Positions 4,052 to 21,967 of a DNA stretch of 22,027 nt are shown here, piece by piece. Position 1 is the first letter of the stretch. Each line of letters begins with the position of its first letter. Origin of the DNA: Pseudomonadota bacterium (GTDB taxonomy: Bacteria > Bdellovibrionota > Bdellovibrionia > Bdellovibrionales > SG-bin7); the NCBI GenBank assembly GCA_034439715.1, contig JAWXAY010000038.1:1-22027 (forward strand). The letters are read 5' to 3'. A model generated the notes under the pieces. It was not told the DNA's origin and did not search any database. It saw nothing but the letters and a program-made list of their open reading frames with translations. Both the position numbers and the translations under genes were made by a program.

Positions 4052-4053
4052 AA

Positions 4054-4275: not shown

Positions 4276-4312
4276 AATCTTTTGCTCCAAGTTTTTTTGC
4301 GCCATTTCAGTA

Positions 4313-4691: not shown

Positions 4692-4762
4692 TGAGACTCA
4701 AGTCTCACAATCAAAATTTGAAAATCCATTAGTTTCAATAAGTTGACAAAGAAATAGTCTCA
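4692..4762. promoter_or_regulatory. Palindrome TGAGACT-CA-AGTCTCA, IHF-like site and extra half site upstream of the signalling operon
   Basis: Perfect 7-bp arms at 4692-4698 and 4701-4707. TTTCAA-TAAG-TTG at 4733-4745 has one mismatch to the IHF consensus WATCAANNNNTTR. AGTCTCA occurs again at 4756-4762. Confidence 0.65.
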
Positions 4763-4804
4763 TTGTCTAAAGGTGCCATCTGATAATGCAGAATGAGGTG
4801 GAAA

Positions 4805-5188
4805 ATGAAAGATCAAATCGTCGGAACATGGCTTCTAGAGCGCTTCTTAATTGAATCTTCAGAAAATGGACTACGCGACTGGGGAACCAATGCTCAAGGT
4901 TTATTAATCTACACTTCATCAGGCCACATGAGCGTAAGCATCAACCGAGATGTAGAAAAAAAATCTGCGGTCGAAGCTCAAAATTATTTTGATTCAATAC
5001 TTTTTTATTCGGGGACATTTGCCGTAGATGCAACAACAGTAAAGCACCAAGTAACTCAAGCTTCTAATCCAACCCGCATCGGGAAAGAACAAATCCGTTA
5101 TGCGAAACTTGAAAATAATATTTTAACGTTAACATCACCTGACGAGTCGTTTGGTCGTGCGATTTTGACATGGAAAAAAATTGCATGA
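4805..5188 (+). CDS. Lipocalin-like domain protein (Lipocalin_5-type), no signal peptide
   Basis: IVGTWLLERF...GLLIYTSSGHMS...YSGTFAV...VKHQV..ASNP..IGKEQIR..L....LTL matches this beta-barrel family. GAGGT RBS before ATG 4805; alternative start at 4793. Confidence 0.75.
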   Translation: MKDQIVGTWLLERFLIESSENGLRDWGTNAQGLLIYTSSGHMSVSINRDVEKKSAVEAQNYFDSILFYSGTFAVDATTVKHQVTQASNPTRIGKEQIRYAKLENNILTLTSPDESFGRAILTWKKIA

Positions 5189-6312
5189 AATTTTTGATAA
5201 TATGTTTGTTGAATTTATTATTTTCAGCTTCGGCCTTTTCGCTGTCTGATAACAAGCAGCTAATAAAAGTTAAAATTTCTTTTATGGAAGCATTAGCGCC
5301 AAGAGACACGACGTCTTCAGAACGCTTTCAAAAAGAATATGAATACGCGGTACAAACAGGCAAGGACCTGACTCGTGAAAAGCTAAAATCGTGCGGCTAT
5401 GAAATAACTGAAGAAAAAGTTTTCTATGATGCCAGTGATAACTTGCAAGCCTTTGAGCAAGCAAAAAAATCTGAAGCTTCTGGAGCATGGCTTATTGTTG
5501 GACCGCGAAGAAGCAACCATTACCTTTTAGCTGTTAAGGGTGCCCCAGAAACGCCCAGCGTGAGCATAATGGCTTCAGCAAAAGAAGTATTTGAGTTGAA
5601 TTCGCTACACCTGTCACTGGCTCAGTCAAATCAGCGAATGGCCGAAGTGCTGGCTCGTGAGGTTAAAAATAAATTTAAACCCAATGCCAAATACCTTTCG
5701 ATTGTCAGCGAAGATTGTGTGTCTTGTGTTGATTTTGCCGAAAGCTTTGATGCCTCTGCAAGGAAGCTAAAATTAAAGAATAGCCACCAATTAAAAATTT
5801 CAGGTGAACAGCCTAATATTGATGGTCTTAAAAAATTGTTTCTAAAAGAAAAGCCAGACTTCGTCCTCATTCCAAATTACTCAATGGTGTCTGCATATTT
5901 AATGGGAATTATTTCAACGTGGAATCCTAAAATTTATTTCCTTGGCGGAGATGGCTGGGGCGACGCCAAATATGGATTTGTCCACGATTCGCCACAACTC
6001 TCAAAAGTTAACGGCATGACAGTGAAGGGTCTGCCCCCTGTTAGTAAGGGTTTAGAATTTTTCGATTTAGGAAAAGAAATTTTAAAGAACCCAAGTCTTG
6101 CTTCAGCTTTTCCAGCAAGTGGTTCTGCACAAGCCTTGCTGAAAGCAATTCAAGATGTGTCTGACATTATTTGTAAATATAAGCCCAAAGATAAAACAGA
6201 ATTTGCACAAAACTTTAAAGAGAACGTTTCGCAATACTTTAAAAACCCGTGGGGCGTTAGTGTTTACAAACTTTCTGAAGGCGAAATTGTTTTCGACAAA
6301 ACTGTGAAGTGA
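5185..6312 (+). CDS. Periplasmic type I (LivJ-like) ligand-binding protein
   Basis: Signal peptide MKFLIICLLNLLFSASAFS and an ATGA overlap with the lipocalin stop. Fold-typical motifs FYD, LIVGPRRS, KPDFVLIP and FLGGDGWG. No ABC permease or ATPase genes are adjacent. Confidence 0.75.
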   Translation: MKFLIICLLNLLFSASAFSLSDNKQLIKVKISFMEALAPRDTTSSERFQKEYEYAVQTGKDLTREKLKSCGYEITEEKVFYDASDNLQAFEQAKKSEASGAWLIVGPRRSNHYLLAVKGAPETPSVSIMASAKEVFELNSLHLSLAQSNQRMAEVLAREVKNKFKPNAKYLSIVSEDCVSCVDFAESFDASARKLKLKNSHQLKISGEQPNIDGLKKLFLKEKPDFVLIPNYSMVSAYLMGIISTWNPKIYFLGGDGWGDAKYGFVHDSPQLSKVNGMTVKGLPPVSKGLEFFDLGKEILKNPSLASAFPASGSAQALLKAIQDVSDIICKYKPKDKTEFAQNFKENVSQYFKNPWGVSVYKLSEGEIVFDKTVK

Positions 6313-6313
6313 T

Positions 6314-7594
6314 ATGAATAAGCCGCAGCAAATAAAGCATTATATTTTTCATTCTTGGCTTGTTGCTGGGGTTATTGCTTTTTCTGCAAGTGTAATTTTA
6401 TTTTTTGCACTTGGCTTTTTCAGCTACAACAAGGCTACAGAAATAGCTAAATTGGAATTGGCGGAAAAGGCAACAAAAGCGGCTCGTCGAATTTCTGCTG
6501 AGCTTTTATTAGAAGGTCGTGGTTCGCCAGAATCAGTCAGACTGCAAATGCAAAAATATTTCAATATTGAACAAATTGAAATTCTTCCTATCAATCAAAT
6601 CGCTCAACTTAATAGTGGCAACATACAGGTTCAAGTTCCAGTTCCTAATTTGGAATCTAAATTTTCTTTGGTGGCGAGTATAAAGGGAATTACATATTAT
6701 AATCATTTTAACTTTTTGCTGCTAGTAAGCTGCTTTTCGCTGATTGGTTTAATTGTGATTTCAGGTCTTTGGATGCAAATAAAATATTTAAAAAGACATG
6801 TTATAAAACCTATCGAATCACTTGTGGCTATTTCAACTGGCGAAAAAGTAGCCTGCGACAACTGGCCGACCGAGCTTCAAGAAATATCAGATAAACTAAA
6901 CCAGTCTTTTCGTGAACGTGAGCAAGTGGTCTACAGCCAAGTTGCACAAGGTGTAATTCACGACATTCGAACGCTATTGCAATCTCTTCAGGTCGCTACT
7001 GATTTGGCTTCAGAAAAGCAATCTGAAGAGCGCTTTAAAAATCTACTAACGATATCAAAATCAAAGCTTCCTAATTTGCTAGCAATTGTAAATACAGCTT
7101 TGGATGGAAGTCGCGAGATCAAAATTAAATCAACTCTCTCTGATTTAATCAAAACACTGAAAAACTCTATCGAGACTAATCAGGCTATTGCGATTTCAAA
7201 AAATATTAAAATTGATTTTGAAACAAGACCGGATTCACTGTTCGCCGCCCACGATCCAATTCAACTTGAGCGAGTATTCACGAATATCTTAAAAAACGCT
7301 GTCGAAGCAGTCGAAGATCAGCAACAAGCAGAAAAGAAAATTAAAATCACTTGCGAAAGTATTTTGCCTAACAAAGTTAAAGTCACCTTTGAAGACAATG
7401 GACATGGACTTCCGCCAAAAGCTGAAAGTGTCTTCCGGCTTTTAAAAAGTACAAAGACTCATGGCTCTGGTCTTGGGTTGTTAGTCTCACGAAAAATTGT
7501 TGAAGCGCACTTCGGAAACATAAAAGCTTCGCATTCAATTGATTTAAAAGGTGCCAGGTTTGAAATTGAGCTGCCGCGTGAGGTTCAATTATGA
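6314..7594 (+). CDS. Membrane sensor histidine kinase
   Basis: Two hydrophobic TM segments flank a ~95-aa extracytoplasmic loop. H-box GVIHDIRT, N-box QLERVFTNILKNAVEA, G1 EDNGHG, G2 GSGLGL. Confidence 0.92.
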   Translation: MNKPQQIKHYIFHSWLVAGVIAFSASVILFFALGFFSYNKATEIAKLELAEKATKAARRISAELLLEGRGSPESVRLQMQKYFNIEQIEILPINQIAQLNSGNIQVQVPVPNLESKFSLVASIKGITYYNHFNFLLLVSCFSLIGLIVISGLWMQIKYLKRHVIKPIESLVAISTGEKVACDNWPTELQEISDKLNQSFREREQVVYSQVAQGVIHDIRTLLQSLQVATDLASEKQSEERFKNLLTISKSKLPNLLAIVNTALDGSREIKIKSTLSDLIKTLKNSIETNQAIAISKNIKIDFETRPDSLFAAHDPIQLERVFTNILKNAVEAVEDQQQAEKKIKITCESILPNKVKVTFEDNGHGLPPKAESVFRLLKSTKTHGSGLGLLVSRKIVEAHFGNIKASHSIDLKGARFEIELPREVQL

Positions 7595-8967
7595 ATCAAG
7601 AACGAGTTCCTAGAATTTTAGCTTTAGACGATGATTCTGAATGGTTGAGCCAGATTCCTATCATGTTCGAGGATCACGGCTATCACATTGACCTGTATGC
7701 AAATATTGACCAAGGTTTAATGGCTATTGAAAATTTCTTTTATGACGTTGTTCTTTTGGATATGAACTTTATTGGGGACAATCGAACTGGGCTAGAGATC
7801 TTTCGTAAAATTGCAGCTAAAGATTCTGAAGTCGATGTCATTGTAATAAGTGGAGAAACTAACCCCCATAAGCTTATTGAAGTCATGAATGCTGGAATAA
7901 CCCAATTTATACCCAAGCCCGCGCAAGTTGGACAAATTCGTGACTCAGTTCAAAAGTCGATCAGGCGGAAAGAATTACGACGGCATTCAATTATTTTAAA
8001 TCAATCAAAAAGTGCTGTGATTGTTGGCTCATCTAAAATTATTCTGGACCTTAAGGCAGAAATTGCGAAGGCAGCGCAGTCTGGGGTTAAAGACATACTA
8101 ATAACTGGCGAGTCAGGCACCGGTAAAGAGGTCGTAGCGCGTTCAATTGCTGAACTTGCTGACTCAGCTAAAAGATTTATTCCGATTCATTGTGCGGCCA
8201 TTAATGACGGCGTAGCCGAGTCTGAACTATTTGGTCACGTTCGAGGAGCCTTTACCAGTGCTGATAAAGATCGTGTTGGTGCTTTTGAAGCAGCGCAGGG
8301 TGGATTTGTATTTCTGGATGAAATCGGAGATATGCCTTTAAACCAGCAAGCAAAACTTCTAAGGGTTTTGCAGGAGCGAAAAGTATCACGTGTTGGAGCA
8401 ACCGAAGAAAGATCTGTCAGCTTCAAATCAATTTGCGCAACCCATGTTGATTTGAATAAAGCTGTTATTGAAAAGCGTTTTCGTGAGGATCTTGTTTACC
8501 GAATTGCGAAGTTCAAAATTGAAATCCCACCACTTCGAAAACGCATCGAAGACATTCCTGAACTGGTTTATCATTTTTTAGCGACTAAGTTTAACAATGA
8601 GTTCACGATCACGCCTGAAGCAATTGGACTTCTCCAAAGTTACTACTGGCCGGGAAATGTTCGCCAACTTGAAGCTACCATTGAAACAATGATCTATCGT
8701 CGAGAAGGAAAAATTATTCGCGAAAAAGATGTTTGCAAGGCTGTTCCAGATCTATCAAATTTGATAACACCAAAGCAAAATGTTTCTTTTCTTGGGAAAG
8801 CTGGCGCGACTCTATTTACCCAAGAGCGCAAAAAATTTGAAAAAGCTATTGTTGATGCTAGTGGTGATCGTACGCTTGCTGCGAAGTCTTTGAATGTATC
8901 GAGGGCTACGTTCTTTAGAAGAGCGAAAGAGCTTGGTCTAGTTGCAAATAAGCGAAGTTCGATATGA
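7591..8967 (+). CDS. NtrC-family response regulator / sigma-54 enhancer-binding protein (REC-AAA+-Fis HTH)
   Basis: REC domain (ALDDD, LLDMN, PKP), Walker A GESGTGKE, ELFGHVRGAFTSA, FLDEIG, FREDLVYRI, WPGNVRQL, and C-terminal HTH AAKSLNVSRATFFRRAKELG. ATGA overlap with the kinase. Confidence 0.95.
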   Translation: MNQERVPRILALDDDSEWLSQIPIMFEDHGYHIDLYANIDQGLMAIENFFYDVVLLDMNFIGDNRTGLEIFRKIAAKDSEVDVIVISGETNPHKLIEVMNAGITQFIPKPAQVGQIRDSVQKSIRRKELRRHSIILNQSKSAVIVGSSKIILDLKAEIAKAAQSGVKDILITGESGTGKEVVARSIAELADSAKRFIPIHCAAINDGVAESELFGHVRGAFTSADKDRVGAFEAAQGGFVFLDEIGDMPLNQQAKLLRVLQERKVSRVGATEERSVSFKSICATHVDLNKAVIEKRFREDLVYRIAKFKIEIPPLRKRIEDIPELVYHFLATKFNNEFTITPEAIGLLQSYYWPGNVRQLEATIETMIYRREGKIIREKDVCKAVPDLSNLITPKQNVSFLGKAGATLFTQERKKFEKAIVDASGDRTLAAKSLNVSRATFFRRAKELGLVANKRSSI

Positions 8968-9021
8968 AGTCCACCATATGGGAATGGATACAAATCCTAA
9001 GATAATAATTGAGCCGGTTCC

Positions 9022-9047
9022 GACCAAGGGCTTGGTTTTATTCTTTC
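9022..9047 (+). terminator. Weak hairpin plus T-rich tail after the response regulator, possible intrinsic terminator
   Basis: GACCAA-GGGC-TTGGTT followed by TTATTCTTT. Confidence 0.3.
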
Positions 9048-9088
9048 ATTTAAACTGTCTGCTTATAAATCCGAAACGTCTATAGATT

Positions 9089-10795
9089 ATGAAGCCAAAA
9101 TCGACAATAGAGTTTAAGTCCCTTGAAAGAATGTTGGAGTCTGAAAAAAGAGCTCAATATTCGACCTATCGTTTAGAAACCGAATCACCACTTAGTCGTA
9201 TTTGTGAATCTGGTGATGCATTAGGACCTTTGATTTTTAAAAAACAGATTGGCTTTTCTAAATGGCTGTTAACGGGTGACGTTTTTTATTCGCGATTTAG
9301 GCCCGGAGACAGAGTAGAAATGAGAATTCAAAAAATCAATACTGATCGCTCGGTAAATTTATCTTACGATTGGAAGGTTGATGGTGTCTCTTATCCTGCG
9401 CCTGGTAAGATTGAGATATTAGTCACAGGGGAAAGACCTTTAGATGCTGAAGGCGTTAATGAGGTATTTCTTTTTAAAAGTTCGTCAGTAAGATTCAATA
9501 ACTTACTGATAAAAAAGCTCAGTGAAATTTCCAATTCAAATGGCTCTAAAATTTTAGGAAATGATCATTTTAAGCTTTCTACACAAGACTCAAAATTCAA
9601 AGAATTTTATGAAAAACTGAATGACACCCAAAAAAGTGCAATAGATTATTTAATTGAAAACAATTTAAGCGGCGCGATCCAGGGGCCACCTGGTACTGGC
9701 AAGACGCAATTACTCCAAGCCATTATTACTCTAGCCTTAAAGTCCAACATGAAGGTTTGCGTAACATCTTTTACAAATGCAGCCGTTGATAATTTAATGG
9801 GACGAATCGTCGGCGACAATTTTGAACATGATTGGGCCCGAGTTGGAAATTCCGAAAAAATTAAAAGAGAGCTATATCCAAACGTCCGAGAAAATTCGAA
9901 CTTTGTGTTTCAAAACTTTAAAAAAGAAGTCAATAACTCTAGCTTAATAGGATCAACACTTCATAAGCTTGCGTATAATAAATCAGCGCCCAAAGTTGAT
10001 TTGCTAGTTATTGATGAGGCAGGTCAGGTGCCAATTTATTTTTGGCCTTTTCTTGAGCTTCTTGCGAAACGTGTTGTCCTTGTAGGAGATCAATTTCAGC
10101 TACCACCTGTGTTTGCAGCGGAACATACAGAACTTCCATTTGATAACGTGTTTTCCTTACTCATCAACGATGAAACGCCTATGCTTGAGACTCAGTACCG
10201 AATGCGACGTGAAATTCAAGCTTGGTCTTCTGAAAAATTTTATAAAGGAAAACTTACCCCTCATGCATCAGTTGCAGATCGTGATTTTTTCAACGGTAGC
10301 TTTGCGTTGTTTCCTGACGGTTGTGTGGAGTCTAAGAAATTTGACTCTTTGACTTCAGGAAAGTCTTCAAAGAATGAGGCGGATTTTATCAGCGACAAAA
10401 TTGAAAAAATACTTAAAGACGATTTCAGTTTAAACAATGTGGGTGTGATTTGTCCTTACCGCGCACAGGCAGGCCTCGTAAATTCAGCTTTACAGCATCG
10501 ACTTGGAGTCAACGAAGCATCTAAAGTTCTAGTTGATACTGTTGAAAGGTTTCAAGGCCAAGAAAAGGAAGCAATATTTTTATCGTTTGGTAGTTCTGGT
10601 GACTATCAAGATGAGCTCCGTTTTCTTTCTGATCCAAAACGATTAAATGTTTCAATCACACGGGCGAAATCCAGATTTTATTGCCTATTTGATAGCAAAC
10701 TCTGGGAACGGTCTCATGAAGCCCAATCTGAGGACCTGAATGAATTTTTGCGATGGGTGACATATGGGAAAACTAGCATTAAACGAGCGGCTTAA
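9089..10795 (+). CDS. Upf1/DNA2/NAM7-like superfamily 1B helicase (AAA_11/AAA_12 type)
   Basis: LNDTQK, IQGPPGTGKT, SFTNAAVDNL, IDEAGQ, LVGDQFQLPP, LETQYRM, GVICPYRAQ, DTVERFQGQEKE, RLNVSITRAK. Confidence 0.92.
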   Translation: MKPKSTIEFKSLERMLESEKRAQYSTYRLETESPLSRICESGDALGPLIFKKQIGFSKWLLTGDVFYSRFRPGDRVEMRIQKINTDRSVNLSYDWKVDGVSYPAPGKIEILVTGERPLDAEGVNEVFLFKSSSVRFNNLLIKKLSEISNSNGSKILGNDHFKLSTQDSKFKEFYEKLNDTQKSAIDYLIENNLSGAIQGPPGTGKTQLLQAIITLALKSNMKVCVTSFTNAAVDNLMGRIVGDNFEHDWARVGNSEKIKRELYPNVRENSNFVFQNFKKEVNNSSLIGSTLHKLAYNKSAPKVDLLVIDEAGQVPIYFWPFLELLAKRVVLVGDQFQLPPVFAAEHTELPFDNVFSLLINDETPMLETQYRMRREIQAWSSEKFYKGKLTPHASVADRDFFNGSFALFPDGCVESKKFDSLTSGKSSKNEADFISDKIEKILKDDFSLNNVGVICPYRAQAGLVNSALQHRLGVNEASKVLVDTVERFQGQEKEAIFLSFGSSGDYQDELRFLSDPKRLNVSITRAKSRFYCLFDSKLWERSHEAQSEDLNEFLRWVTYGKTSIKRAA

Positions 10796-10929
10796 TACAA
10801 AAGTGTACAGCTCAATTCAATAAGTTTCTAATCCGTTCCATTTAGACCGCCAATGATAACTTCTTAAAAATCGAGTGAAACCACATCGCACGAGTTTTCG
10901 TTATTTTTTCTGGCATTGATTTTTAAACT

Positions 10930-11008
10930 TGATACTCCAGTATCATTTTGCACTACGTCAGTGAGACTCGCACTGAGATCCGTGAGACTCAGTCTCACCG
11001 TTGAGACT
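10930..11008. repeat. Cluster of TGAGACT-type repeats and palindromes, candidate upstream activating sequence
   Basis: TGATACT-CC-AGTATCA at 10930-10945, TGAGACT at 10962, TGAGATC at 10974, TGAGACT-C-AGTCTCA at 10983-10997, TGAGACT at 11002. Confidence 0.8.
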
Positions 11009-11074
11009 CGATAAAAAAACTAAAAACAAAGTGAAATTATATACTTAACATTTTTAACCACTGCGTAAGCGGAT

Positions 11075-11089
11075 TGGCACGCCTTTGCT
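11075..11089 (+). promoter_or_regulatory. Sigma-54-like -24/-12 box (GG-N9-GC, one base shorter than canonical)
   Basis: TGGCAC-GCCT-TTGCT compared with the consensus TGGCAC-N5-TTGCW. It is preceded by A-tracts and a partial IHF-like site (AATTAT-ATAC-TTA, 11035-11047) and lies about 50 nt before the first gene of the transfer operon. Confidence 0.5.
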
Positions 11090-11102
11090 CTTATTACCTT
11101 TC

Positions 11103-11123
11103 GAGACCGTTAGAGTCTCACAA
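11103..11123. promoter_or_regulatory. GAGAC-N7-GTCTC inverted repeat in the leader just before the RBS
   Basis: GAGAC at 11103-11107 and GTCTC at 11115-11119. AGTCTCACAA (11114-11123) is identical to 4701-4710. AGGAG RBS at 11131-11135. Confidence 0.55.
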
Positions 11124-11140
11124 CAAAAAAAGGAGAAAAA

Positions 11141-11362
11141 GTGCAACAGAAGAAGCCAGGAATTTTAGAACAGATTTTTTATGAATCTGAAAAATATAAA
11201 ATTTCAAGACGAAAAGTGAGCGAAGCCCTTCGACGAGTCCGCAATTGGTTTAAAAGAGAATTCAGGGCCAGTGAGCCACTGCCGCCGGAATTTAAAGATT
11301 TTCAACTTGAAAAAGAAATTGACAGAAATCGAGCGAAAGATCTATGGCAAAAATATTTTTAG
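11141..11362 (+). CDS. Hypothetical protein, possibly the N-terminal part of a frameshifted gene
   Basis: Strong AGGAG RBS and GTG start. It ends at TAT TTT TAG inside a T5 run and overlaps the next ORF by 19 nt. Confidence 0.6.
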   Translation: MQQKKPGILEQIFYESEKYKISRRKVSEALRRVRNWFKREFRASEPLPPEFKDFQLEKEIDRNRAKDLWQKYF

Positions 11363-11688
11363 GCCATGAATTTAAAAATATTCAACACCATTTTCGCGAA
11401 TGGTACGGATCTTTAAGTGTTCTTGAGTTGTCTGCTAACTCAAAACTGATTCGTAAAATTCAAGAGATTGAGACTCATCTTGAGACCATTAAAAAACCTC
11501 AAGAAAACAACGAAAAATTTAAAATGAACCTTAGCCAGCTAGAAACTGACTTGAGTTTTTTGTGGGAATTATTAACTCCTACGGAAAAATCTAGAGCGTT
11601 AGTTTTTAACAAATTTTTAGAACTTCAAAAGAAAGTTCGAGCTACTTGTGACGTAACTCAGCATAACTTAACAGACAAAGGAATTTAA
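11344..11688 (+). CDS. Hypothetical alpha-helical protein, possibly the C-terminal part of the same gene
   Basis: 114-aa ORF with no clear RBS. Its stop is 1 nt before the next ATG. Confidence 0.6.
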   Translation: MAKIFLGHEFKNIQHHFREWYGSLSVLELSANSKLIRKIQEIETHLETIKKPQENNEKFKMNLSQLETDLSFLWELLTPTEKSRALVFNKFLELQKKVRATCDVTQHNLTDKGI

Positions 11689-11689
11689 A

Positions 11690-12055
11690 ATGAATAAGCA
11701 TAGTGAAAAACATGAAATCTTCACGGGATTTCGCAAAGAAAATGTAGTTGAAGCAAAACTATTAGTTGGTGCTGCCTTTAAAGATGAAGGCACCAGCTAT
11801 TACAAAATCAGACTCATGATGTTTCCGGGGTATACATACTATTTGGTAAAGAATCAAAATGCCGTTGATAGATACACGGTTTATTCGCGCATGATTGCAG
11901 ACGATAAAAATAGAAACCAAATCAAATTTTTGAATCCCGTCGGAAACGGAATTTTAGACTCAAAACTTCAAAGCTATTTGGAAGTCAGATTTCCAATGCT
12001 TCGAGCTTATGTGTATATGTCACTTTATCCACAAAAACAAAATTACAAGGAGTAA
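11690..12055 (+). CDS. Hypothetical protein with internal duplication, DUF736-like (possible ssDNA-binding)
   Basis: AAGGA RBS. Two similar beta-rich units: VGAAFKDEGTSYYKIRLMMFPGYTYYL and VGNGILDSKLQSYLEVRFPMLRAYVYMSL. Confidence 0.5.
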   Translation: MNKHSEKHEIFTGFRKENVVEAKLLVGAAFKDEGTSYYKIRLMMFPGYTYYLVKNQNAVDRYTVYSRMIADDKNRNQIKFLNPVGNGILDSKLQSYLEVRFPMLRAYVYMSLYPQKQNYKE

Positions 12056-12061
12056 GTAGGA

Positions 12062-12343
12062 TTGAATAATCAAAAGGTTTTTTCTGCTCTTACATTGATT
12101 CTAATTATCGCGTTCCCATTGATTGGCTTTTGCAGCGTTGAATCTAGTCTTGCTGCCGTTCAGTCAAAACTGATCGGCACAATATTGCCGCTGGTTGCAA
12201 TCATAGGGCTTGTGTTCGCAGGCCTTTCATTTGTAGCCGGTAGCCCTAGTGCCAGAAATCATTTGGTCCTAGCGATCATCGGAGCCGCTATCGGATTCGG
12301 AGCGCCAAGTATCGTGAGCTGGATTCAATCACTGATTCACTAA
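12062..12343 (+). CDS. virB2: VirB2/TrbC-like conjugative pilin
   Basis: 93 aa, TTG start, with a leader followed by two hydrophobic helices and AIIGAAIGFGAPSIVSWI. First gene of the T4SS block. Confidence 0.8.
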   Translation: MNNQKVFSALTLILIIAFPLIGFCSVESSLAAVQSKLIGTILPLVAIIGLVFAGLSFVAGSPSARNHLVLAIIGAAIGFGAPSIVSWIQSLIH

Positions 12344-12352
12344 TTTTAACCA

Positions 12353-12382
12353 GGGGCTTCCAAACACGGAGGTCCTATTTTT
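12353..12382 (+). terminator. Hairpin plus T-run between pilin and virB3 (partial terminator or mRNA stabiliser)
   Basis: GGGGCTTCC-AAACAC-GGAGGTCCT (9-bp stem with 3 G-U pairs) followed by ATTTTT. Confidence 0.45.
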
Positions 12383-12395
12383 AGGGGTATATAAA

Positions 12396-12719
12396 ATGGA
12401 ATTAAAAGTTACCGAAGTTAGTCGATGCTTAGATAAAAAGATGATGATCATGGGATTTGAAGTTCCCGACCTGCTTTTCATTTTTTTAACGATGTCGATT
12501 TTAAATTTCTTATTTGGAACAACAAATTTGAAAATGCTTTTTGTTTGGCTTCCTAGTGCCGCAATCGCCTTGACGATTAGATTCACAAAGCGTGGCAAGC
12601 CGGACAATTACTTAATTCATTGGCTCAGGTTTCAAATAAAACCTGGGGTTCTTGCCGCCTTTCCTGATCCTACAAATCAAACGCCAGCGCCAACTCTTTT
12701 ACAAAGGAAGTCTGCATGA
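12396..12719 (+). CDS. virB3: VirB3/TraL-like inner-membrane protein
   Basis: 107 aa with two TM segments, LDKKMMIMGFE motif, located between pilin and VirB4 with an ATGA overlap. Confidence 0.7.
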   Translation: MELKVTEVSRCLDKKMMIMGFEVPDLLFIFLTMSILNFLFGTTNLKMLFVWLPSAAIALTIRFTKRGKPDNYLIHWLRFQIKPGVLAAFPDPTNQTPAPTLLQRKSA

Positions 12720-15133
12720 GTGCAAAATTAGCTGATTACTTACAAGTCTGGGGGCTTGAAGAAAAGCATATTATCTTTACGGATGGTTCATTTGGTCTAG
12801 GGTTTAAACTTAAACCGACGGACGCAAGTTGCTGGTCAGTGGACCAAGCTAATGAGTACTCACAAAAATTGATTCAATTTTTGAATGGCTTGCCGCCAGA
12901 AATTGATTTTCAACTTGTGAGCGATATCAAAGCTGGTAACGCCGAAATAATGCAAAGACATCAATTGTCAGATTGTTCCGACAGCGATGTTGTTCGGGAA
13001 TTGACGTCTGCGCGAGTTGAGAAATTTTCTGATCTAGATGCGCGAGGATTACTTCCAAGTCATGGTCTATTCTTATTCGTAAGACGCAAGGCAAATAGTT
13101 CTCTGTTAAAAAAAGCGAGTTTCTTTTCTAGGCACAACGATTTTCAGGCAATTGCTGACGACAAATTGAAACACGAGCTGGCAACGAGTGAACGACTTTC
13201 GCATGATTTGAATTCAAGTCTTTCAGCTTTAGGACTTGAGCCGGAATTTTTAGATCCAGAGGCACTTTTGAAGCTAATGCATCAGCAATGGAATCCAAAT
13301 CGAAAAATCGTTCTTGGTTCTGTTAACCCCGATAATCTACGGAGTGGTTTATTGTTTACTGACGTCGGCATTGATCAAAAAGGATTTATGATGAGTGACT
13401 ATAATTATAGAGTCATTTCTTTAAAGCTTTTGCCTGATCAGACCTATGCAGTTATGGCCGCAAAGCTTCGGGAATTACCTTTTGATACCAGATTATCCTT
13501 AACGGTTCATGTTCCGAATCAGCAAAAAGAACTTGAGACATTGCAAACTCAGCGGCGAATTGCATTTTCTATGGTGGCCGGAAAAAAAGTTGGGGTGGCC
13601 GATTTAGAGTCCGAAGCTAAATTTCGAGATCTTGAAACCTTGCTTGAGCAAATGGTCTCTCAAGGCGAAAAAGTTTTCCACATGAGTCTGCAAGTATTGG
13701 TTCGGTCTACTTCGGTTGAAGATCTAGATAACAAAGTTTCGGAGGTTTTAGTCAAGATTCGTGAAATGGGCGGCGCCGAAGCAATGGAGGAAACTTTAGC
13801 TGCTTTTGATATTTTCAGTGAAGCCGCAATTCCAAATTCAAGATGTAAGGAAAGAATAAAAAGAATCAAAACTTCTAATTTATGTGATCTTCTTCCAGTA
13901 TATGGCCCTTGGAGTGGTCATAAAGATCCGAAAATTTTGCTCAGATCAAGATTAGGTAGTCTTGTCAGTTTCAACCCATTCACCAGTGAGCTAACGAACT
14001 CGAACCAAATTGTCAGCGGTGGATCTGGTAGCGGTAAGTCCTACATGACAAATATTTTGATGATGCAGATGATGAAAGAAAATCCGAAAATATTTATCGT
14101 CGATATCGGTGGGTCATACAAAAAGATCTGCGAAAACTTTAACGGCCAGTATATTCAGCTAGGCGTTGATACAGATCTATCAATAAACCCTTTCGATCTT
14201 GCCGTTGGCGAAACTAAACCAACCAGTCAAAAAGTAAAATTCATTTTAAGCTTAGTTGAAATCATGACTAAGGAAAATGAAAAGCTTCAGTTAGGCAAAC
14301 TTGAAAAATCCGAAATCGAATCGGCCATTGAAAAAGTCTACGAAGTTTCAAAAAATCCAAGGCTATCGGATTTGAGAAAACTTTTAATTGAACACGATGA
14401 CGTAAATATACAGCGTATCGGTAAAATTTTAACCAGTTGGTGCGGAAATTCCCCTTACGGCAAATTTGTAGACCAGAAAACTACGCTTGAACTACAGCGA
14501 TCCTTGGTCTGTTTTGACCTTAAAGGAATGGAGTCTTATCCGGATCTTCAATCGGCGTGTTTATTTATTATTACAGATTTTGTTTGGCGCGAGGTTCAGG
14601 CCGACAAATCTAAAATGAAGTTTCTAATTCTTGATGAGTGCTGGAAGCTCATGGAAAATGATTCGGCTTCTCTTTTTATTGCGGAAGTATTCAGAACATT
14701 TAGAAAATACATGGCCTCGGCCATTGCTATTTCGCAAAACATTGACGATTTCGCGAAAAGTAAAATTGCTAATGCGATTTTGCCTAATTCTTCTATTAAA
14801 TGGGTCTTGAAACAAAAGGGAGCTGATAAAGATAGACTCAAAGAGGTTCTTGGACTTAATCCAAACGAAGTAGATCTTATTTCATCACTGGGACAAGAGC
14901 GCGGTTCATATTCAGAGGCTTTTTTAATGGCCGAAGACTCAAGAGCCGTCGTGATTATTGAATCAACTCCGCTTGAATATTGGTTAGCTACGACCGACGG
15001 CCGTGATCTTGGCAAAATTGAGGATTACAAAAAGCAATACTCTGAAATTTCACAACTTGAGGTTTTGAAGAAGCTTGCGTTCGAATTTCCCAGAGGTATT
15101 GCGGCCCATCAGCAGAAACGAAATCAATCATGA
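12716..15133 (+). CDS. virB4: VirB4/TraC-family T4SS ATPase
   Basis: 805 aa. Walker A GGSGSGKS, IVDIGGSY, SINPFD, Walker B ILDECW, RTFRKY...ISQ. Confidence 0.92.
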   Translation: MSAKLADYLQVWGLEEKHIIFTDGSFGLGFKLKPTDASCWSVDQANEYSQKLIQFLNGLPPEIDFQLVSDIKAGNAEIMQRHQLSDCSDSDVVRELTSARVEKFSDLDARGLLPSHGLFLFVRRKANSSLLKKASFFSRHNDFQAIADDKLKHELATSERLSHDLNSSLSALGLEPEFLDPEALLKLMHQQWNPNRKIVLGSVNPDNLRSGLLFTDVGIDQKGFMMSDYNYRVISLKLLPDQTYAVMAAKLRELPFDTRLSLTVHVPNQQKELETLQTQRRIAFSMVAGKKVGVADLESEAKFRDLETLLEQMVSQGEKVFHMSLQVLVRSTSVEDLDNKVSEVLVKIREMGGAEAMEETLAAFDIFSEAAIPNSRCKERIKRIKTSNLCDLLPVYGPWSGHKDPKILLRSRLGSLVSFNPFTSELTNSNQIVSGGSGSGKSYMTNILMMQMMKENPKIFIVDIGGSYKKICENFNGQYIQLGVDTDLSINPFDLAVGETKPTSQKVKFILSLVEIMTKENEKLQLGKLEKSEIESAIEKVYEVSKNPRLSDLRKLLIEHDDVNIQRIGKILTSWCGNSPYGKFVDQKTTLELQRSLVCFDLKGMESYPDLQSACLFIITDFVWREVQADKSKMKFLILDECWKLMENDSASLFIAEVFRTFRKYMASAIAISQNIDDFAKSKIANAILPNSSIKWVLKQKGADKDRLKEVLGLNPNEVDLISSLGQERGSYSEAFLMAEDSRAVVIIESTPLEYWLATTDGRDLGKIEDYKKQYSEISQLEVLKKLAFEFPRGIAAHQQKRNQS

Positions 15134-15813
15134 AAAAGATAGTCTCAATTTTTATGGCAGTTTCGATTATGACTTCAGCGCCAGCAAAGGCAGATATGTT
15201 CGGTGGTGACCTTATCTATCTTGCTCAAATTTTGGCGAACGCAATAAAGCAATTAACCGAATTGAAAAATATGGTTGATACTGGTAAAGATCAGTTGAAT
15301 CTTTTGACAGAAATTAATCGCGGTATTAACGATTCGTTGCGACTAGCGCAAACAATTGCTCCAAATATAGACCCCGGCATTTATAAAGACTGGCATAACG
15401 CAAGTGATGCCCTAGTTAAACTTCAGGCTATCTACGGAATAGTGACGAATTCACCAGACTCAAAGGTTTATTCAGACACAGATCAAAATGTAGCAGAAGC
15501 CGTAACTCTAAATAACGATATTTATAAATATACAAAAAATATCGACGAACTTGGCGAAGCAATAAAGGACTACAGTCATGACGTATCCCCTGGTGGCGCT
15601 CAAAAGCTCACGGCGCAGACGTTGGGAGTCATGCTTCAGGTATTGAACCAAACACTCAGGACTCAAGCAACTGGTTTAAAACTTCAGGCGCAAACAATGG
15701 CTGTGCAAAATAAAAAAGAGAAAGACTCAACTAAACAGTATTTAGAAACAGCAAACACTCTTCGGATCGCTATGAAAAAAGAAAAAATTCAATTCGTAGC
15801 GCCTAGATTTTAA
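15130..15813 (+). CDS. TrbJ/VirB5-like secreted helical protein
   Basis: Signal peptide ending APAKA, followed by coiled-coil segments (NAIKQLTELKNM; QAQTMAVQNKKE). Located between virB4 and virB6. Confidence 0.65.
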   Translation: MKKIVSIFMAVSIMTSAPAKADMFGGDLIYLAQILANAIKQLTELKNMVDTGKDQLNLLTEINRGINDSLRLAQTIAPNIDPGIYKDWHNASDALVKLQAIYGIVTNSPDSKVYSDTDQNVAEAVTLNNDIYKYTKNIDELGEAIKDYSHDVSPGGAQKLTAQTLGVMLQVLNQTLRTQATGLKLQAQTMAVQNKKEKDSTKQYLETANTLRIAMKKEKIQFVAPRF

Positions 15814-15823
15814 GGAGTAAATT

Positions 15824-16741
15824 ATGACTTCAGATATTGCGTGGCTTGCGATCGAAGCCAAAAAGCTTCATGAGATATTTTCAGGATACTTTTATCTTAT
15901 CGTAACGGTGCTTATGCTTCTAGGGATTGCCATTGAATACTTTAAATGGCCCATCGGCGGTGTGCCAAATTTTGGTACCATTGTCGGTCGTGCATTAATT
16001 GCGGCTCTTTTGCTACACGCTTACCCCGAAATTACAAACACGATTGCAGATGTCACAGACGCAATGGCCGCAAGACTTGGCGATTTGAATAATTTTAAAA
16101 TGATTTTAGATAAGATGGGAGACAAAGTTGGTGAACTTTCTTGGTCATGGGTCAGTTTCAAAGACACGATCATGCTGCTTATCAGCTTTCTAACGTTTTT
16201 CATTTTGTATTTTTCGATTCATATCGCGGATAGTTTCTATATTTACGTCTGGGTGATGCTTTATGTGTTTTCGCCACTGCTGATTGCTCTTTATGTCCTA
16301 CCGGTTACAGCGTCAGCGACATCGGCCTTGTTTAGGTCACTGATCGAGGTGGCCTGTTGGAAAATTGTCTGGTCGGTTATTGCGACCTTACTTTGGAGTA
16401 GCGCCTTAAGTCAGATCAATCAAGATGGAACGCAAGTGAGTTTTTTAACAGCTATTGGCTTTAATATTATTTTAGCCGGTTCGCTGTTGTTGACCCCCTT
16501 CGTTGTTCACGCTCTTGCGGGAAGTGGTTTATCGACGATGGGTCGAGATTTAAGTTCACTTGCTATCGGCGGAATGACGATCAGTCCAAGTCGTACAATG
16601 GGTGTTACAAAAAGTTTAGCCTCAAAAACCATTTCAAATGGGAAAAGTTATTTTTCAAAGCCCGGTTCAAATAAAAATATGAGCCAAAATAATCAGAAAC
16701 ACTCTGCGAATAGTAAATCGCAAAAGCAAATTAAGGCATAA
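15824..16741 (+). CDS. virB6: VirB6/TrbL-like polytopic membrane protein
   Basis: About 5-6 hydrophobic segments, YVFSPLLIALYVLP motif, polar basic tail, AAGGAG RBS. Confidence 0.75.
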   Translation: MTSDIAWLAIEAKKLHEIFSGYFYLIVTVLMLLGIAIEYFKWPIGGVPNFGTIVGRALIAALLLHAYPEITNTIADVTDAMAARLGDLNNFKMILDKMGDKVGELSWSWVSFKDTIMLLISFLTFFILYFSIHIADSFYIYVWVMLYVFSPLLIALYVLPVTASATSALFRSLIEVACWKIVWSVIATLLWSSALSQINQDGTQVSFLTAIGFNIILAGSLLLTPFVVHALAGSGLSTMGRDLSSLAIGGMTISPSRTMGVTKSLASKTISNGKSYFSKPGSNKNMSQNNQKHSANSKSQKQIKA

Positions 16742-16757
16742 CTAGGAGAGTTTTATT

Positions 16758-17300
16758 ATGAAGTACACAGAAGCATGGTCTTCAGTCGTATCGCAGAATT
16801 TTAATTTAAAATTAGTCACAGTAGTTCTTGGAGCGTTAACGATTCTTTTGTCAATGGTGACATTGAAGATGACTTTTAAAGATTCAATCATCGTCGAGCG
16901 AGGATGTTTTTCAAGATCACTTCAGCCAGCAAAAGACGAGCACTCAAAGCAAGAAATTGAAAACTTTCTAAGAGAGGCCTTGTCGCAAAGATTTGATTCT
17001 TTAGTCATGGCTACTGACGGGCTTCTTTCGCCAGATGAGCTGAAGCTTCGAGATCAAGAACAAAAGGAATTTGGAGCTAGAAATATGAAGCAACGCTTAG
17101 TTGTCAATTCAGTTTCTGAGACTACTGAAGGCTTTAAAGTAGATGCTGATCGGATGATTTCAGTTGGAGATGTCAGATCCGCATTTAGGTTTTCACTATT
17201 AGTGAAACTGGAATCCAAGTCGAGATCTTTTTCAAATCCTTATGGTCTGTTGATTATTTCGACGAAGCAATGGGAAGAAAAAATAAAGGAGTCAAAGTGA
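16758..17300 (+). CDS. virB8: VirB8-like protein
   Basis: Single N-terminal TM segment and the C-terminal R...NPYGL motif typical of VirB8/TrbF. Confidence 0.75.
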   Translation: MKYTEAWSSVVSQNFNLKLVTVVLGALTILLSMVTLKMTFKDSIIVERGCFSRSLQPAKDEHSKQEIENFLREALSQRFDSLVMATDGLLSPDELKLRDQEQKEFGARNMKQRLVVNSVSETTEGFKVDADRMISVGDVRSAFRFSLLVKLESKSRSFSNPYGLLIISTKQWEEKIKESK

Positions 17301-17722
17301 AATTAAATAATACAACGAGTTCGGCATTAAGATTGTTCAAAATGTTTCTAATGTATCTAGGTGTAACATTTCTATTGATCATGTTAGCGAATGAGGTCGA
17401 TGCCAAAACTTCACTCCGAACCGTTAAGTGCGACGAATCAAAAATGATCGAAGTCTATGTTAAGCCAAGCTTCAGCACGATTGTTAATTTTCCTATTAAG
17501 CCCGACAACGTCGTTTTGGGTGGGAAGAATCAATTTGCAATTGAGTATATTAAAAATGATATCGCGCTGACAGCTTTGGCCTCGAATTCGAGAACAAATT
17601 TATTCGTGTATTTATTTGGCAGGAGATGTGGTTTTCAGCTCATGGCGTCCTCACTGAAACACGACAATTTGATTCTTGTTCGCGACCCAGAAGAAGCAAA
17701 AATAAAAGTTCCTTTGAAATAG
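17297..17722 (+). CDS. Short VirB9/TrbG-like protein (N-terminal domain only)
   Basis: GTG start with AGGAG RBS overlapping the virB8 stop. Signal-peptide-like leader, then IEVYVKPSFSTIVNFP...VVLG...RTNLFV. Confidence 0.65.
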   Translation: MKLNNTTSSALRLFKMFLMYLGVTFLLIMLANEVDAKTSLRTVKCDESKMIEVYVKPSFSTIVNFPIKPDNVVLGGKNQFAIEYIKNDIALTALASNSRTNLFVYLFGRRCGFQLMASSLKHDNLILVRDPEEAKIKVPLK

Positions 17723-17731
17723 GCGGTAACG

Positions 17732-18631
17732 ATGGACGAAGAAGTTAAAGTAAGTCTTGTCGGCGATGACGGCCATAAAAGGCGCTGGGGTTTAGAAAAC
17801 CTGCTCTACCGCAAGGAAGGTCGCAAACTTAGTATCAACGTCAAAGTCACCGCGTGGATGTTTTGTCTTTTTATTTTGGCTGGCAGCGCTTACTCAATTA
17901 TTTCAGAATTTTTTAAACCTACGCCGACAGAGAATTCGGTTCCAATTGCTTTCACCGAACAAATGGGTTCAAGATCGTCAGGATCGGAAAAAATTCAGAT
18001 ACCCAGTGGCAATTCAGAATTCAATAGACCTGCGCCGACAGGCAGCAAGTCTAAGGTCGTGGTTTATTATTCCGCTCCGCAAGTCATTGGCAGACCCAAT
18101 TTAGGAAAGATACCACCAGGCACAATGGTCAAAGCAAAATTTATTACAGGGGCCTCCAATGGCCCTTTAAAGGCAATGCTTGTGGAGGCCTTAGCAATCA
18201 ACGGCGAAGATATCGCTCCTGAGGGAACAACCTTGGTTGGCTCAGGTAGTTCGGGTGATGACAGGCTGAGTGTGCAGTTTACCAAACTTGTATTTAGAGA
18301 TGGTAAATCGCAAAGCATCCAAGCCCAAGGGTGTGATCTGTCCGATCAAACTGTTGGCGTTAAGGGTAAAAAATTAAGTAAGTACGCTGTTCTTTTGGCA
18401 ACTGGCGCAGGACTTAATTTTTTGGGTGGTGTTGCTGAGGGTTTGCAGGAGACCCAAGTTCAAAACGGTGTCGCTACCAAAAAATCAGACCTCAAAAATG
18501 CTGCCCTTAACGGAGCCTCAAAATCAGCCCTCGATTTATCAACAGACGTTCTATCGGACATGAAAAGTAAAAAATCAGTCATTCAAGTTGAAAGCGGAAA
18601 AGAATTCTATGTTCTATTCGAAGGAGAATAA
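17732..18631 (+). CDS. virB10: VirB10/TrbI-like core complex protein
   Basis: TM segment, Pro/Ser-rich linker, IPPGTMVKAKFITG, APEGTTLVG, hydrophobic antenna helices, and C-terminal IQVESGKEFYVLF. Confidence 0.85.
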   Translation: MDEEVKVSLVGDDGHKRRWGLENLLYRKEGRKLSINVKVTAWMFCLFILAGSAYSIISEFFKPTPTENSVPIAFTEQMGSRSSGSEKIQIPSGNSEFNRPAPTGSKSKVVVYYSAPQVIGRPNLGKIPPGTMVKAKFITGASNGPLKAMLVEALAINGEDIAPEGTTLVGSGSSGDDRLSVQFTKLVFRDGKSQSIQAQGCDLSDQTVGVKGKKLSKYAVLLATGAGLNFLGGVAEGLQETQVQNGVATKKSDLKNAALNGASKSALDLSTDVLSDMKSKKSVIQVESGKEFYVLFEGE

Positions 18632-18633
18632 AT

Positions 18634-20085
18634 TTGATATTTAGTCAAAATCAGAAATCAAATTCGACACAGGCAAATACCGATGCCTTTATTAAATTGT
18701 GCAAAAATCTTGTTTTTGGAATCGGACAGCCCATAGTTGAGATATTTTACGGAATAAAGAAAGATACAATTCCCTATTTGCCAATCTTAGCCTGGGGGCT
18801 GGTATTTGATATTCTAACCCTGAGCCATCTGGATCAAAAAATATTTAAATTTTTAAAGCTTGGTTGGCTTTACCCGCAGAATCCGATCACCTATTCGATT
18901 TATTGCTTTTTCGGAGTAACATTTGGCTTTTCGGTATGGGGCGCAATTCAAACCAGAAAGAAAACAAATATGATTCAAAGACTCACTGAAGTTTTTCAAG
19001 AGACTGGCCTTAAAAGTCCAATGGGAAAGCTGCCTAATTTTATTTTCGATAAACCAGTGGATGAGCTAGTCAGGCGTCTTCGTATTACAAATGCATTTAT
19101 GCCAAAGGCAAAGTTTGAGGAGGCCAAGGATCGCTTAGAAAGTTCCCTTCAGGTTTACATTGATGAAATCAGCGAAAGCAAATCTGGCGGAACAGTGGAT
19201 CTTTTGTATTCTCATTTTGAAATTTCGAAAATGGTCGAGATGACGGATATAAAATCTATTGGCAGACATCGGTTCTTAATTGGCAAGACTAGAGCGAAGA
19301 CGATCTATTCAACACTTTCGGAAACGCCACACTTATTGATTGGCGGCCAAACCGGCGGCGGCAAATCGACTTTTCTTCGGCAAGTTATTACCACGCTTTA
19401 TTGCAACAACCCTGATTACAATTTCACTTTGATTGATATGAAAGGCGGTCTTGAATTTCAACTCTTTGAAAATCGTGATCGGATCAAAGTGATTTCGACT
19501 CCAAATGACAGTAGTAGCCAGTTTACTATTTTGGATCAATTGCTGACTGAAAGATTTGAACTGCTAAAAACGAATCAATGCAAAGACATCGAAGAATTTC
19601 AACAGAAGCCAAAAGATCAACTAAAACTACCAGATGGCCTAAAAGCGGAATCTTTTAAGTTGAATCGCAACATTGTTGTCATTGATGAGGCTGCCGAACT
19701 GTTTCTAGCCAGTGGCAAAGTAAATGTTAGTCTGGTTCAAGAGATGACTAGAAAAGTGATTCGCCTTGCAGCCCAAGGGCGTGCGGTGGGAATTCATTTA
19801 ATCGTCGCAACTCAAAAGCCGGATTCAAAAGCCATCAGTTCCCAAATCAAAGCCAATTTGACTGGAATCATTTCGTTTCCAATGGCAACGCTGGGGGCGA
19901 GTTTTTCCATTTTAGGAAATGGCCGTGCCAAAGAGCTACCATCGATTCCGGGCCGAGCTGTTTGGAAATCAGGTCTTGATCAATTCGAAGTGCAGACTGC
20001 GTTTCTAAGTCCCGATCAGACCAAAATTGAATTGGATAAAAGCTCGGCGCCAAAGGAAGAGGTTCATGAAGAAAAGACAGTTTAA
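18634..20085 (+). CDS. FtsK/SpoIIIE-family ATPase, probable TcpA-like coupling protein or DNA translocase
   Basis: N-terminal TM segments, PHLLIGGQTGGGKS, LIDMKGGLEF, VVIDEAAEL and GRAVGIHLIVATQKP. TTG start with AGGAG RBS. Confidence 0.88.
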   Translation: MIFSQNQKSNSTQANTDAFIKLCKNLVFGIGQPIVEIFYGIKKDTIPYLPILAWGLVFDILTLSHLDQKIFKFLKLGWLYPQNPITYSIYCFFGVTFGFSVWGAIQTRKKTNMIQRLTEVFQETGLKSPMGKLPNFIFDKPVDELVRRLRITNAFMPKAKFEEAKDRLESSLQVYIDEISESKSGGTVDLLYSHFEISKMVEMTDIKSIGRHRFLIGKTRAKTIYSTLSETPHLLIGGQTGGGKSTFLRQVITTLYCNNPDYNFTLIDMKGGLEFQLFENRDRIKVISTPNDSSSQFTILDQLLTERFELLKTNQCKDIEEFQQKPKDQLKLPDGLKAESFKLNRNIVVIDEAAELFLASGKVNVSLVQEMTRKVIRLAAQGRAVGIHLIVATQKPDSKAISSQIKANLTGIISFPMATLGASFSILGNGRAKELPSIPGRAVWKSGLDQFEVQTAFLSPDQTKIELDKSSAPKEEVHEEKTV

Positions 20086-20953: not shown

Positions 20954-20965
20954 TAGGAGCACGTT

Positions 20966-21199
20966 TTGAAGATAGTAATAATGTTAGTGATAACGGTAAT
21001 AGGATTGAGTTCATGTACGACAATAAATAAGAATAAAATGGATTCAAATAAAGCAATTAATAAAGATGATAATAAATCTCCTTCGTTAACAGCACCAAAG
21101 GTTAGCAGGGTTTGGGTTCCCGATAAAATTGAAGGCGATAAATATATTGAAGGTCATTATATGTGGATTTTAGAAAAGACAACGTCATGGAGTCAGTAA
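20966..21199 (+). CDS. TraV/VirB7-like outer-membrane lipoprotein
   Basis: Lipobox GLSSC after a short hydrophobic leader. C-terminal RVWVPD...EGHYMWIL...W resembles the TraV motif. AGGAG RBS and TTG start. Confidence 0.65.
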   Translation: MKIVIMLVITVIGLSSCTTINKNKMDSNKAINKDDNKSPSLTAPKVSRVWVPDKIEGDKYIEGHYMWILEKTTSWSQ

Positions 21200-21201
21200 A
21201 A

Positions 21202-21720: not shown

Positions 21721-21734
21721 TTTCCGAGGGAAAA

Positions 21735-21962
21735 ATGTCGAAAATACTTTTATCGGGATTAGATAAAAGTGAGTCCCAGTTCTTTGAAAATCGAATAGTC
21801 TGTGAGTGGTTATCATCTGCTCAAGTTGCGGCCTTTTTAGGAATTTCTGAAAATGCACTTCGCATAATGGTTTATCGAAGGCAGGTTAAGTTTTCTAAAC
21901 TTGGTCGTAGATTGAGATTTCATATTGATGATGTGAACGCTCTTTTTTCTCGGAAGGGATAA
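21735..21962 (+). CDS. xis: Excisionase-like HTH protein (probable recombination directionality factor)
   Basis: EWLSSAQVAAFLGISENALRIMVYRRQVKFSKLGRRLRFHIDDV. GAGGG RBS before ATG 21735; alternative TTG start at 21717. Confidence 0.8.
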   Translation: MSKILLSGLDKSESQFFENRIVCEWLSSAQVAAFLGISENALRIMVYRRQVKFSKLGRRLRFHIDDVNALFSRKG

Positions 21963-21967
21963 AAGAG

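Follow-up and report, generated by a model that had tools for sequence, protein, structure and literature searches.

A candidate sensing circuit and an off-register sigma-54-type promoter ahead of the transfer genes of a Bdellovibrionales integrative and conjugative element

The stretch of DNA analysed here (the window; 22,027 nucleotides, contig JAWXAY010000038.1 of assembly GCA_034439715.1, forward strand) is contig C38 of a 3.26-Mb Bdellovibrionales genome, and carries part of an ICE (integrative and conjugative element), identified as such by a VirB4-type type IV secretion system (T4SS), an Xis-like gene and an integrase. From left to right it holds a divergent defence-like block, a sensor operon, a cargo helicase gene and a packed tra operon that ends in the Xis-like gene. 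The sensor operon, on the forward strand, encodes a lipocalin-like beta-barrel (4793..5188; PF13924, expectation value (E) 9e-22), a candidate signal synthase or ligand carrier; an exported LivJ-type (PF13458-like) periplasmic binding protein, the candidate receptor (5170..6312); a membrane histidine kinase with HisKA and HATPase_c domains, two transmembrane segments and a periplasmic domain of ~95 residues (6314..7594); and an NtrC-family activator (7591..8967) with a receiver (PF00072), an AAA+ domain (PF00158, E 2.5e-57) and a C-terminal helix-turn-helix (HTH). The tra operon occupies 11141..22027 on the same strand. Arms of a repeated motif, TGAGACT, lie in front of both operons, and the activator is their probable reader.

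The window contains 13 exact TGAGACT arms, where shuffled sequence gives 2.34 +/- 1.69; eight lie in the two intergenic regions (three before the sensor operon, five before the tra operon) and five inside genes. At the genome rate, the Poisson probability is 9e-10 for five arms in 345 bp and 3e-5 for three arms in 490 bp, and genome-wide the motif is not enriched (observed/expected 1.01). The palindromic form TGAGAC-N2..8-GTCTCA is found at only two places in 3.26 Mb, namely the two promoter regions of the window. The shared motif had been proposed by a first-pass annotation of this DNA, and its repeat coordinates were all recovered, including a perfect 7-2-7 palindrome upstream of the sensor operon (4692..4707), a putative regulator site, and a half site at 4756-4762. 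Ahead of the tra operon lies a candidate enhancer array of about seven arms (10930..11008), kept as islands across related elements at fixed offsets from the -24 box described below (about -113, -101, -92, -84 and -73). The site at 10930-10945 is, as described, a G-to-T variant in both arms, and the related element L017 has the G form at the same place. Further arms were said to recur toward the tra genes; those at 10962, 10983, 10991, 11002 and 11114 are exact, but the one at 10974 is two bases off. In the inverted repeat at 11103..11120, which overlies the predicted start region before the ribosome-binding site at 11131, the right arm (11114) is exact, but the left arm is imperfect and the spacer longer; this site is kept in most of the N9 (one base short) tra promoters compared below, and is absent from L051, L156, L181 and L185. 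Between array and promoter lie an A-tract and a site resembling that of integration host factor (IHF) (11010..11047, forward strand), the latter at 11035-11047 with two mismatches to the IHF consensus; in 10 of 16 promoters the distance from the best IHF-like match to the downstream -24 box is 39-41 bp. Two longer shared words fared less well. An 11-mer is indeed common to positions 4734 and 10816, but the 10816 copy is not kept in L017, L018 and L108, and the 4734 copy overlaps a conserved TTGACA -35 box at 4743; for a shared 10-mer the arm part stands, but the bases that extend past it are not conserved in all four of the elements aligned. In the host genome the opposite orientation, GTCTCA-N3-TGAGAC, occurs six times (C35:23196 and five others), once 50 bp before a canonical sigma-54-type site, and cross-talk with a host activator is possible.

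The promoter of the sensor operon (4743..4771, forward strand) appears to be of the sigma-70 type with a putative regulator site in its spacer: a -35 box at 4743-4748 is followed by the half site at 4756-4762 and a weak -10 near 4766-4771. Of 50 related loci, 32 have a TTGAC -35 box with a half site 7 bp later, where the background rate is 0.002 per 420 bp, and 33 have a palindrome-like site upstream. A consensus promoter scanner made no call here, and the -10 of the window is poor. Self-regulation of the two-component system, as suggested earlier, would act on a sigma-70-type promoter and not on a sigma-54 one.

Related elements point to the activator as the likely reader of both sets of motifs, in keeping with the first-pass proposal. 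The comparison covered 108 regions, some of them redundant: 100 anchored on VirB4, nearly all picked for likely upstream length among at least 150 VirB4 matches, plus four earlier loci, the window and three sister elements of the same genome. A cluster was defined as at least three arms and counted in the 95 regions with at least 2.6 kb upstream; L023, anchored on the wrong VirB4 copy, is out of the upstream counts, and L053, anchored on a partial match, is kept in. Clusters were present in 5 of 5 regions whose regulator is at least 50% identical to that of the window, in 2 of 63 with a lower identity, and in none of the 27 with no activator seen, so that repeats persisting without the two-component system, which the first-pass annotation took as a sign of another function, were not encountered. 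The two exceptions carry the helices SRATYYR and SRAHYYR, near the SRATFFR of the window, on a different AAA+ clade. L076 and L004, with VirB4 93-94% identical and another regulator, have no cluster, and neither does L143, which has the same sensor genes and another regulator. Conversely, in L108 (VirB4 33%, regulator 69%) the arms persist as islands although the DNA around them has diverged, and L051 (VirB4 49%, regulator 55%) has the cluster. Elements with an altered helix also have an altered motif, in both promoters: L181 has SKSAYYRQ with GGGACT, and L156 has SRATLYRR with TGAGACA. The binding protein served as anchor for a further set of 61 loci at 40% identity or more, and in this set a same-clade regulator follows the binding protein in 29 of 32 loci. 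Other activator clades have other motifs common to tra and module promoters, for example in the sister element on host contig C7, L084, L089 and L050. The cluster thus tracks the regulator helix and not the T4SS, relaxase or Xis-like genes, and this co-occurrence and co-variation make it very probable that regulator and motif belong together, with the regulator HTH presumably binding the upstream repeats.

The tra operon is preceded by a sigma-54-type -24/-12 site (11075..11089, forward strand) with both boxes conserved and four spacer bases free to vary. TGGCAC and TTGC are both present; GG at 11076-77 and GC at 11087-88, however, are separated by nine bases (GG-N9-GC), one short of the canonical GG-N10-GC. 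All 14 promoters aligned, themselves chosen by that pattern, show GG, CA and TTGC without variation. All 16 loci (about 13 distinct) that combine this regulator clade with downstream tra genes have N9, and none has N8, N10 or N11; their regulators are 49-94% identical, their spacers varied, three have a one- or two-base variant in the -24 box, and 15 of the 16 have at least three arms in the zone examined. Short spacing extends beyond this clade. When strict boxes were required, N8 was seen seven times, N9 eight times and N10 twice in the 95 tra zones, with no other spacing, and 65 module zones (those of the sensor modules) yielded ten N10 sites and no others. Relaxed scoring returned N10 18, N8 11, N9 9 and N7 2 in tra zones, most of these N10 sites having an imperfect -12 box, and N10 24, N8 1 and N9 1 in module zones; some sister elements have a canonical N10 site at the same tra position. 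The family thus often uses canonical spacing, with the short forms confined to some of its members. In the tra zones of L104 and L095, whose module promoters are N10, TGGCAC and TTGC stand 15 and 14 nt apart, far off register.

The host genome also holds three further elements of the family (C14:6755, C36:6742 and C7:31241), each with its own activator module and with tra sites of N8, N8 and N9, respectively; for the C36 module there is a perfect N10 site on the minus strand, at 6341. In five N8 elements a single enhancer zone is flanked by an N10 site for the module and an N8 site for tra. The possibility that the activator clade dictates spacing was rejected, as L084, sister to two N9 activators, is N10, and N8 elements have N10 module sites; spacing is thus a property of the tra promoter and not of the activator. 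In a quick activator tree (from which six N10 rows were dropped by a motif filter, and in which the N8 label of L089 is weak) N9 and N8 each cluster, with two changes each. An altered host sigma-54 as the cause of N9 was likewise not found in an alignment from HTH to RpoN box. The host encodes an RpoN (TIGR02395, E 3e-138) whose HTH and RpoN box are intact, along with 15 full sigma-54 activator domains and three HU/IHF-family genes. Counting spacings over the whole genomes of five complete relatives was not informative (N8 67, control 72; N9 50, control 33; N10 79, control 56; N11 70, control 57). Eight further non-coding N8 sites of the host, on C6, C63, C67, C80, C85, C94, C98 and C100, are all followed by A, on a background of 3-4 sites per spacing, and may form a class of short sites in the host. 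At C3:21097, a few kb past the integrase of the element, lies the genome's third non-coding N9 site, with no clear downstream gene. The earlier claim of sigma-54 control of tra stands on weaker ground than it was given, since the spacing of the site departs from the strict rule.

The proteins of the sensor operon suggest how such a promoter could be governed. The activator aligns full-length to a solved NtrC-family protein (4l4u) and keeps Walker A and B, the Phe-Thr of its loop, the arginine finger and sensor II; the loop reads GAFTSA in the window and five close relatives and GAFTGA in most of the clade, with Phe-Thr kept. Most of the clade has His where other activators have Asn before C-A-A-I, which we take to be the switch Asn. 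No plasmid matched the regulator at E 1e-90. In the kinase, H216 and D217 are invariant in 33 sequences. The binding protein has no direct Pfam match, scores 0.96 to PF13458 clusters in the Atlas, and has several homologues with PF13458; its single-sequence fold is of low confidence (predicted local distance difference test, pLDDT, 40), and searches of PDB sequences gave nothing useful for it or for the lipocalin. It is predicted to dock on the periplasmic domain of the kinase, with a score of 0.78 against 0.01 for the best control, at least 97% of contacts agreeing between runs, partner pLDDT of at least 83, and contacts that include two residues invariant in the kinase, R59 and E63. This mark was reached by 116 of 157 solved pairs and 2 of 215 mismatched pairs, and the score may partly reflect likeness to solved receptor-kinase pairs.

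Across the family a sigma-54 activator is present in 56 of 66 elements with at least 12 kb upstream, and the sensor modules vary. The commonest module inspected combines a secreted protein of 80-135 aa with a family-5 binding protein, a kinase and an enzyme of YcaO-like or radical-SAM type; other modules have GNAT, CMAS plus thioesterase, or hydrolase genes in the slot held here by the lipocalin. The secreted proteins (L004:1033-1314, L013:1969-2313, L026, L034 and many others) have short C-terminal tails, resemble precursors of modified-peptide signals, and adjoin the YcaO-like or radical-SAM enzymes and family-5 binding proteins. In L012:1761-8090 a divergent activator accompanies a CMAS methyltransferase, two thioesterase-family genes and a 7TMR-DISM kinase, an arrangement that suggests a fatty-acid signal module.

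Taken together, we favour, with a probability of roughly 0.7, the reading that this is the master switch of the ICE, a density-sensing circuit that drives a detuned sigma-54 tra promoter. The periplasmic binding protein would capture a small ligand and signal through the membrane kinase, which would phosphorylate the NtrC-family regulator, and the regulator would then bind TGAGACT half sites. At its own operon the palindrome and the half site in the sigma-70 spacer would give feedback, repression being the likelier sign from their position. At the tra promoter the regulator would assemble on arms 70-145 bp upstream, loop over the IHF-like bend and drive host sigma-54 polymerase. The tra, xis and int genes may form one transcript, such that excision and transfer would be switched on together. 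Productive use of the N9 site by sigma-54 through this simple route is probable, and tra transcription would then be RpoN-dependent and begin about 12 nt past the GC; we infer that the site is a weakened promoter that sets a high activator threshold, and the one-base-short site would fire only at high activator occupancy and ignore the other activators of the host.

Several observations weigh against this reading. A strict sigma-54 spacer requirement with a structural basis has been described (PMC9770992, citing Buck 1986, in the portion available), and the accessible text of a survey gives a consensus of N5-7 between the boxes and no shorter form (PMC12316311). From HTH to RpoN box the host sigma-54 shows no gap in alignment with solved sigma-54, and host non-coding sites peak at N10 (N10 29, N8 10, two of them on ICEs, N9 3, other spacings 3-4), so that nothing in the host explains N9. 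The related elements are kin and not independent samples, and a test for motifs shared between the two promoters failed in about half of 25 elements, including L108 by its top 6-mer. Tra genes lie downstream in 15 of 25 module loci with at least 9 kb, and none was seen within 9-15 kb in the other 10. Nor did fold searches assign the lipocalin to an enzyme family, returning a fold match only. Nine loci with a sensor module and no tra gene within 9-15 kb (L126, L129, L146, L149, L155, L164, L178, L180 and L182) may reflect long cargo or reuse of the module for other outputs.

Two readings that concern the input only differ in the origin of the ligand. A self-made signal, produced by the lipocalin barrel and amounting to quorum sensing, is slightly favoured because the lipocalin occupies the position of the synthase slot in sister modules. 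The alternative, not far behind, is the same circuit tuned to an outside cue (prey, an amino acid or a lipid), with the lipocalin as carrier or buffer. The binding protein belongs to the LivJ amino-acid-binding family, the operon has no transporter or recognised synthase, and the fold neighbours of the lipocalin are binding proteins (model pLDDT 89; best match 4gzv, Z 11.7, root-mean-square deviation 3.7, 103 residues aligned), all of which would suit an outside cue. On the other hand, the lipocalin has no signal peptide and a maximum hydropathy of 0.79, and is predicted to be cytoplasmic; it therefore could not pair with a receptor outside. It also immediately precedes the binding protein in 52 of 52 loci, has invariant polar residues that include Y40, Y72, H85, R95, R102 and E118, and has enzymes as its counterparts in sister modules.

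The main rival to the weakened-promoter reading, although an unlikely one, is a helper-dependent promoter: the regulator would control tra via the arms, but host sigma-54 alone could not use N9, and either an element-encoded helper (for example a small open reading frame (ORF) at the head of the operon) would be required or sigma-54 would dock unproductively while another sigma factor transcribes. The strict spacer rule and the unchanged host sigma-54 favour this rival, as do the perfect boxes standing off register at 15 of 17 tra sites and 0 of 10 module sites, the single enhancer zone that serves both N10 module and N8 tra sites in five elements, and the resemblance, read by eye from the sequences, of small ORFs heading several tra operons to sigma region 4 or zinc ribbons. 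However, no sigma-70 match is found in 10780-11145, the head-of-operon ORFs differ among N9 elements (the window, L108 and L051), the two boxes are held at fixed spacing with a free spacer as though read together, and the activator retains the catalytic and loop residues listed above. A dead promoter, arising by mutation or assembly error in a decaying element, would also account for the violated spacing, but is very improbable given N9 in every one of the 16 loci with varied spacers, the same site in L157, and open reading frames throughout the tra genes of the window. A role of the repeats as iterons, as oriT accessory sites or as arm sites for Xis or integrase, independent of the regulator, would fit their clustering in direct and inverted orientation on an ICE, with two genes for Xis-like HTH proteins nearby. 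It is largely refuted, as L007 and L004 keep the Replic_Relax-like protein (80-82%) and L012 both Xis-like proteins (58% and 72%) without a cluster, and the motif shifts with the regulator helix.

Precedents exist for parts of the weakened sigma-54 switch that we favour. In the Vibrio LuxP-LuxQ-LuxO system a periplasmic binding protein docked on a kinase feeds a sigma-54 activator; the window would share this route and differs in its LivJ-type receptor, in having no hybrid relay and in its conjugation output. RteB of CTnDOT is reportedly annotated as an NtrC-family protein. ICEBs1 and ICEMlSym use Rap/Phr or LuxR-type proteins, unlike the receptor, kinase and AAA+ activator of the window family, whose sensor modules vary. 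According to the portion of a review available (PMC5812530), ICEBs1 RapI-PhrI and ICEMlSym TraR likewise place excision and transfer under element-encoded signalling, and in CTnDOT an ICE-encoded two-component pair, RteA/RteB, starts excision and transfer as proposed here. CTnDOT differs in that RteB acts on the rteC promoter and not on tra directly, with tetracycline-controlled translation as input; it has no periplasmic receptor, and sigma-54 goes unmentioned in that portion, where the ICE controls named are RapI-PhrI, TraR, SetCD and RteA/RteB-RteC, and RpoN appears only in a nitrogen-fixation reference (PMC5812530). NtrC/ZraR-type enhancer-binding proteins and PexR of Myxococcus, a dual activator and repressor, share the receiver-AAA+-HTH architecture, upstream dyad repeats with a bend site between, and, in the part of the source available (PMC12754779), the pairing of sigma-54 activation with action on a housekeeping-sigma promoter; the target here would instead be a conjugation operon on a mobile element, with a -24/-12 site one base short. 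The literature searched, which leaves most subscription journals outside, gave no paper on sigma-54-driven tra genes, regulation of Bdellovibrio ICEs or short -24/-12 spacing, and PMC8213034 had no relevant passage. The first-pass statement that no characterised ICE is known to use an element-encoded sigma-54 activator for transfer has to be set beside the two-component precedent of CTnDOT, which works via RteC (PMC5812530, in part).

The divergent defence-like block (54-4305) encodes an Xis-like HTH protein, an SNF2 helicase with a NOV_C domain and a DUF1156 protein; L003 has a type I methylase in its place. A UPF1-like SF1 helicase gene (9089..10795, forward strand) is variable cargo outside the switch, with other genes there in L003, L005 and L108, and in L013:6521-8118 a cyclic-nucleotide (cNMP)-binding TIR protein followed by a probable cyclase forms Pycsar-like cargo between sensor module and tra. 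Within the tra operon, where intergenic gaps are 52 bp or less, lie three small ORFs, VirB2, VirB3 and VirB4, ORFs called VirB6-, VirB8- and VirB9-like from position and size with no family match, TrbI/VirB10, a coupling-protein candidate matched by profile as an FtsK-type ATPase, a Replic_Relax-like protein, the Xis-like HTH_17 gene at 21717 and the start of the integrase. The VirB4/TraC-like match has E 1e-92, and the pilin and TrbI are matched as well. The relaxase candidate (308 aa) has no direct match; Replic_Relax was matched by 11 of 20 homologues, only two above cut-off, and a PF13814 profile search gave no match anywhere, its controls being silent too. A conserved 121-aa ORF before VirB2 (11690-12055), with no Pfam match, is matched in 69 of 401 genomes of the phylum and is usable as a family marker. 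The end of the window shares 99 nt with contig C3, where a 366-aa integrase continues (its L003 orthologue is PF00589); the left end of the element lies beyond the contig, and no tRNA was detected within the window. The VirB4 relatives of the window fall in Bdellovibrionales assemblies, with a VirB4 match (E <= 1e-50) in 147 of the 384 genomes of the order.

For this widespread Bdellovibrionota family as a whole it may be suggested, tentatively, that conjugation is run from quorum-sensing cassettes swappable as units together with their enhancer, that sigma-54 works productively at tra promoters one or two bases below a spacing supposed to be invariant, a state reached more than once and serving as a threshold or insulation device, and that the lipocalin-like barrel here makes an autoinducer. 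The family supplies many matched activator-enhancer pairs and candidate signal-synthesis genes, and its conserved N9 and N8 sites would be natural exceptions to the sigma-54 spacing rule. A built-in sensing circuit acting on a short-spaced promoter would be an unusual way for a mobile element of predatory bacteria to keep transfer off until a strong signal arrives and, if true, direct sigma-54 activation by an element-encoded sensor would be a new control logic for horizontal gene transfer.

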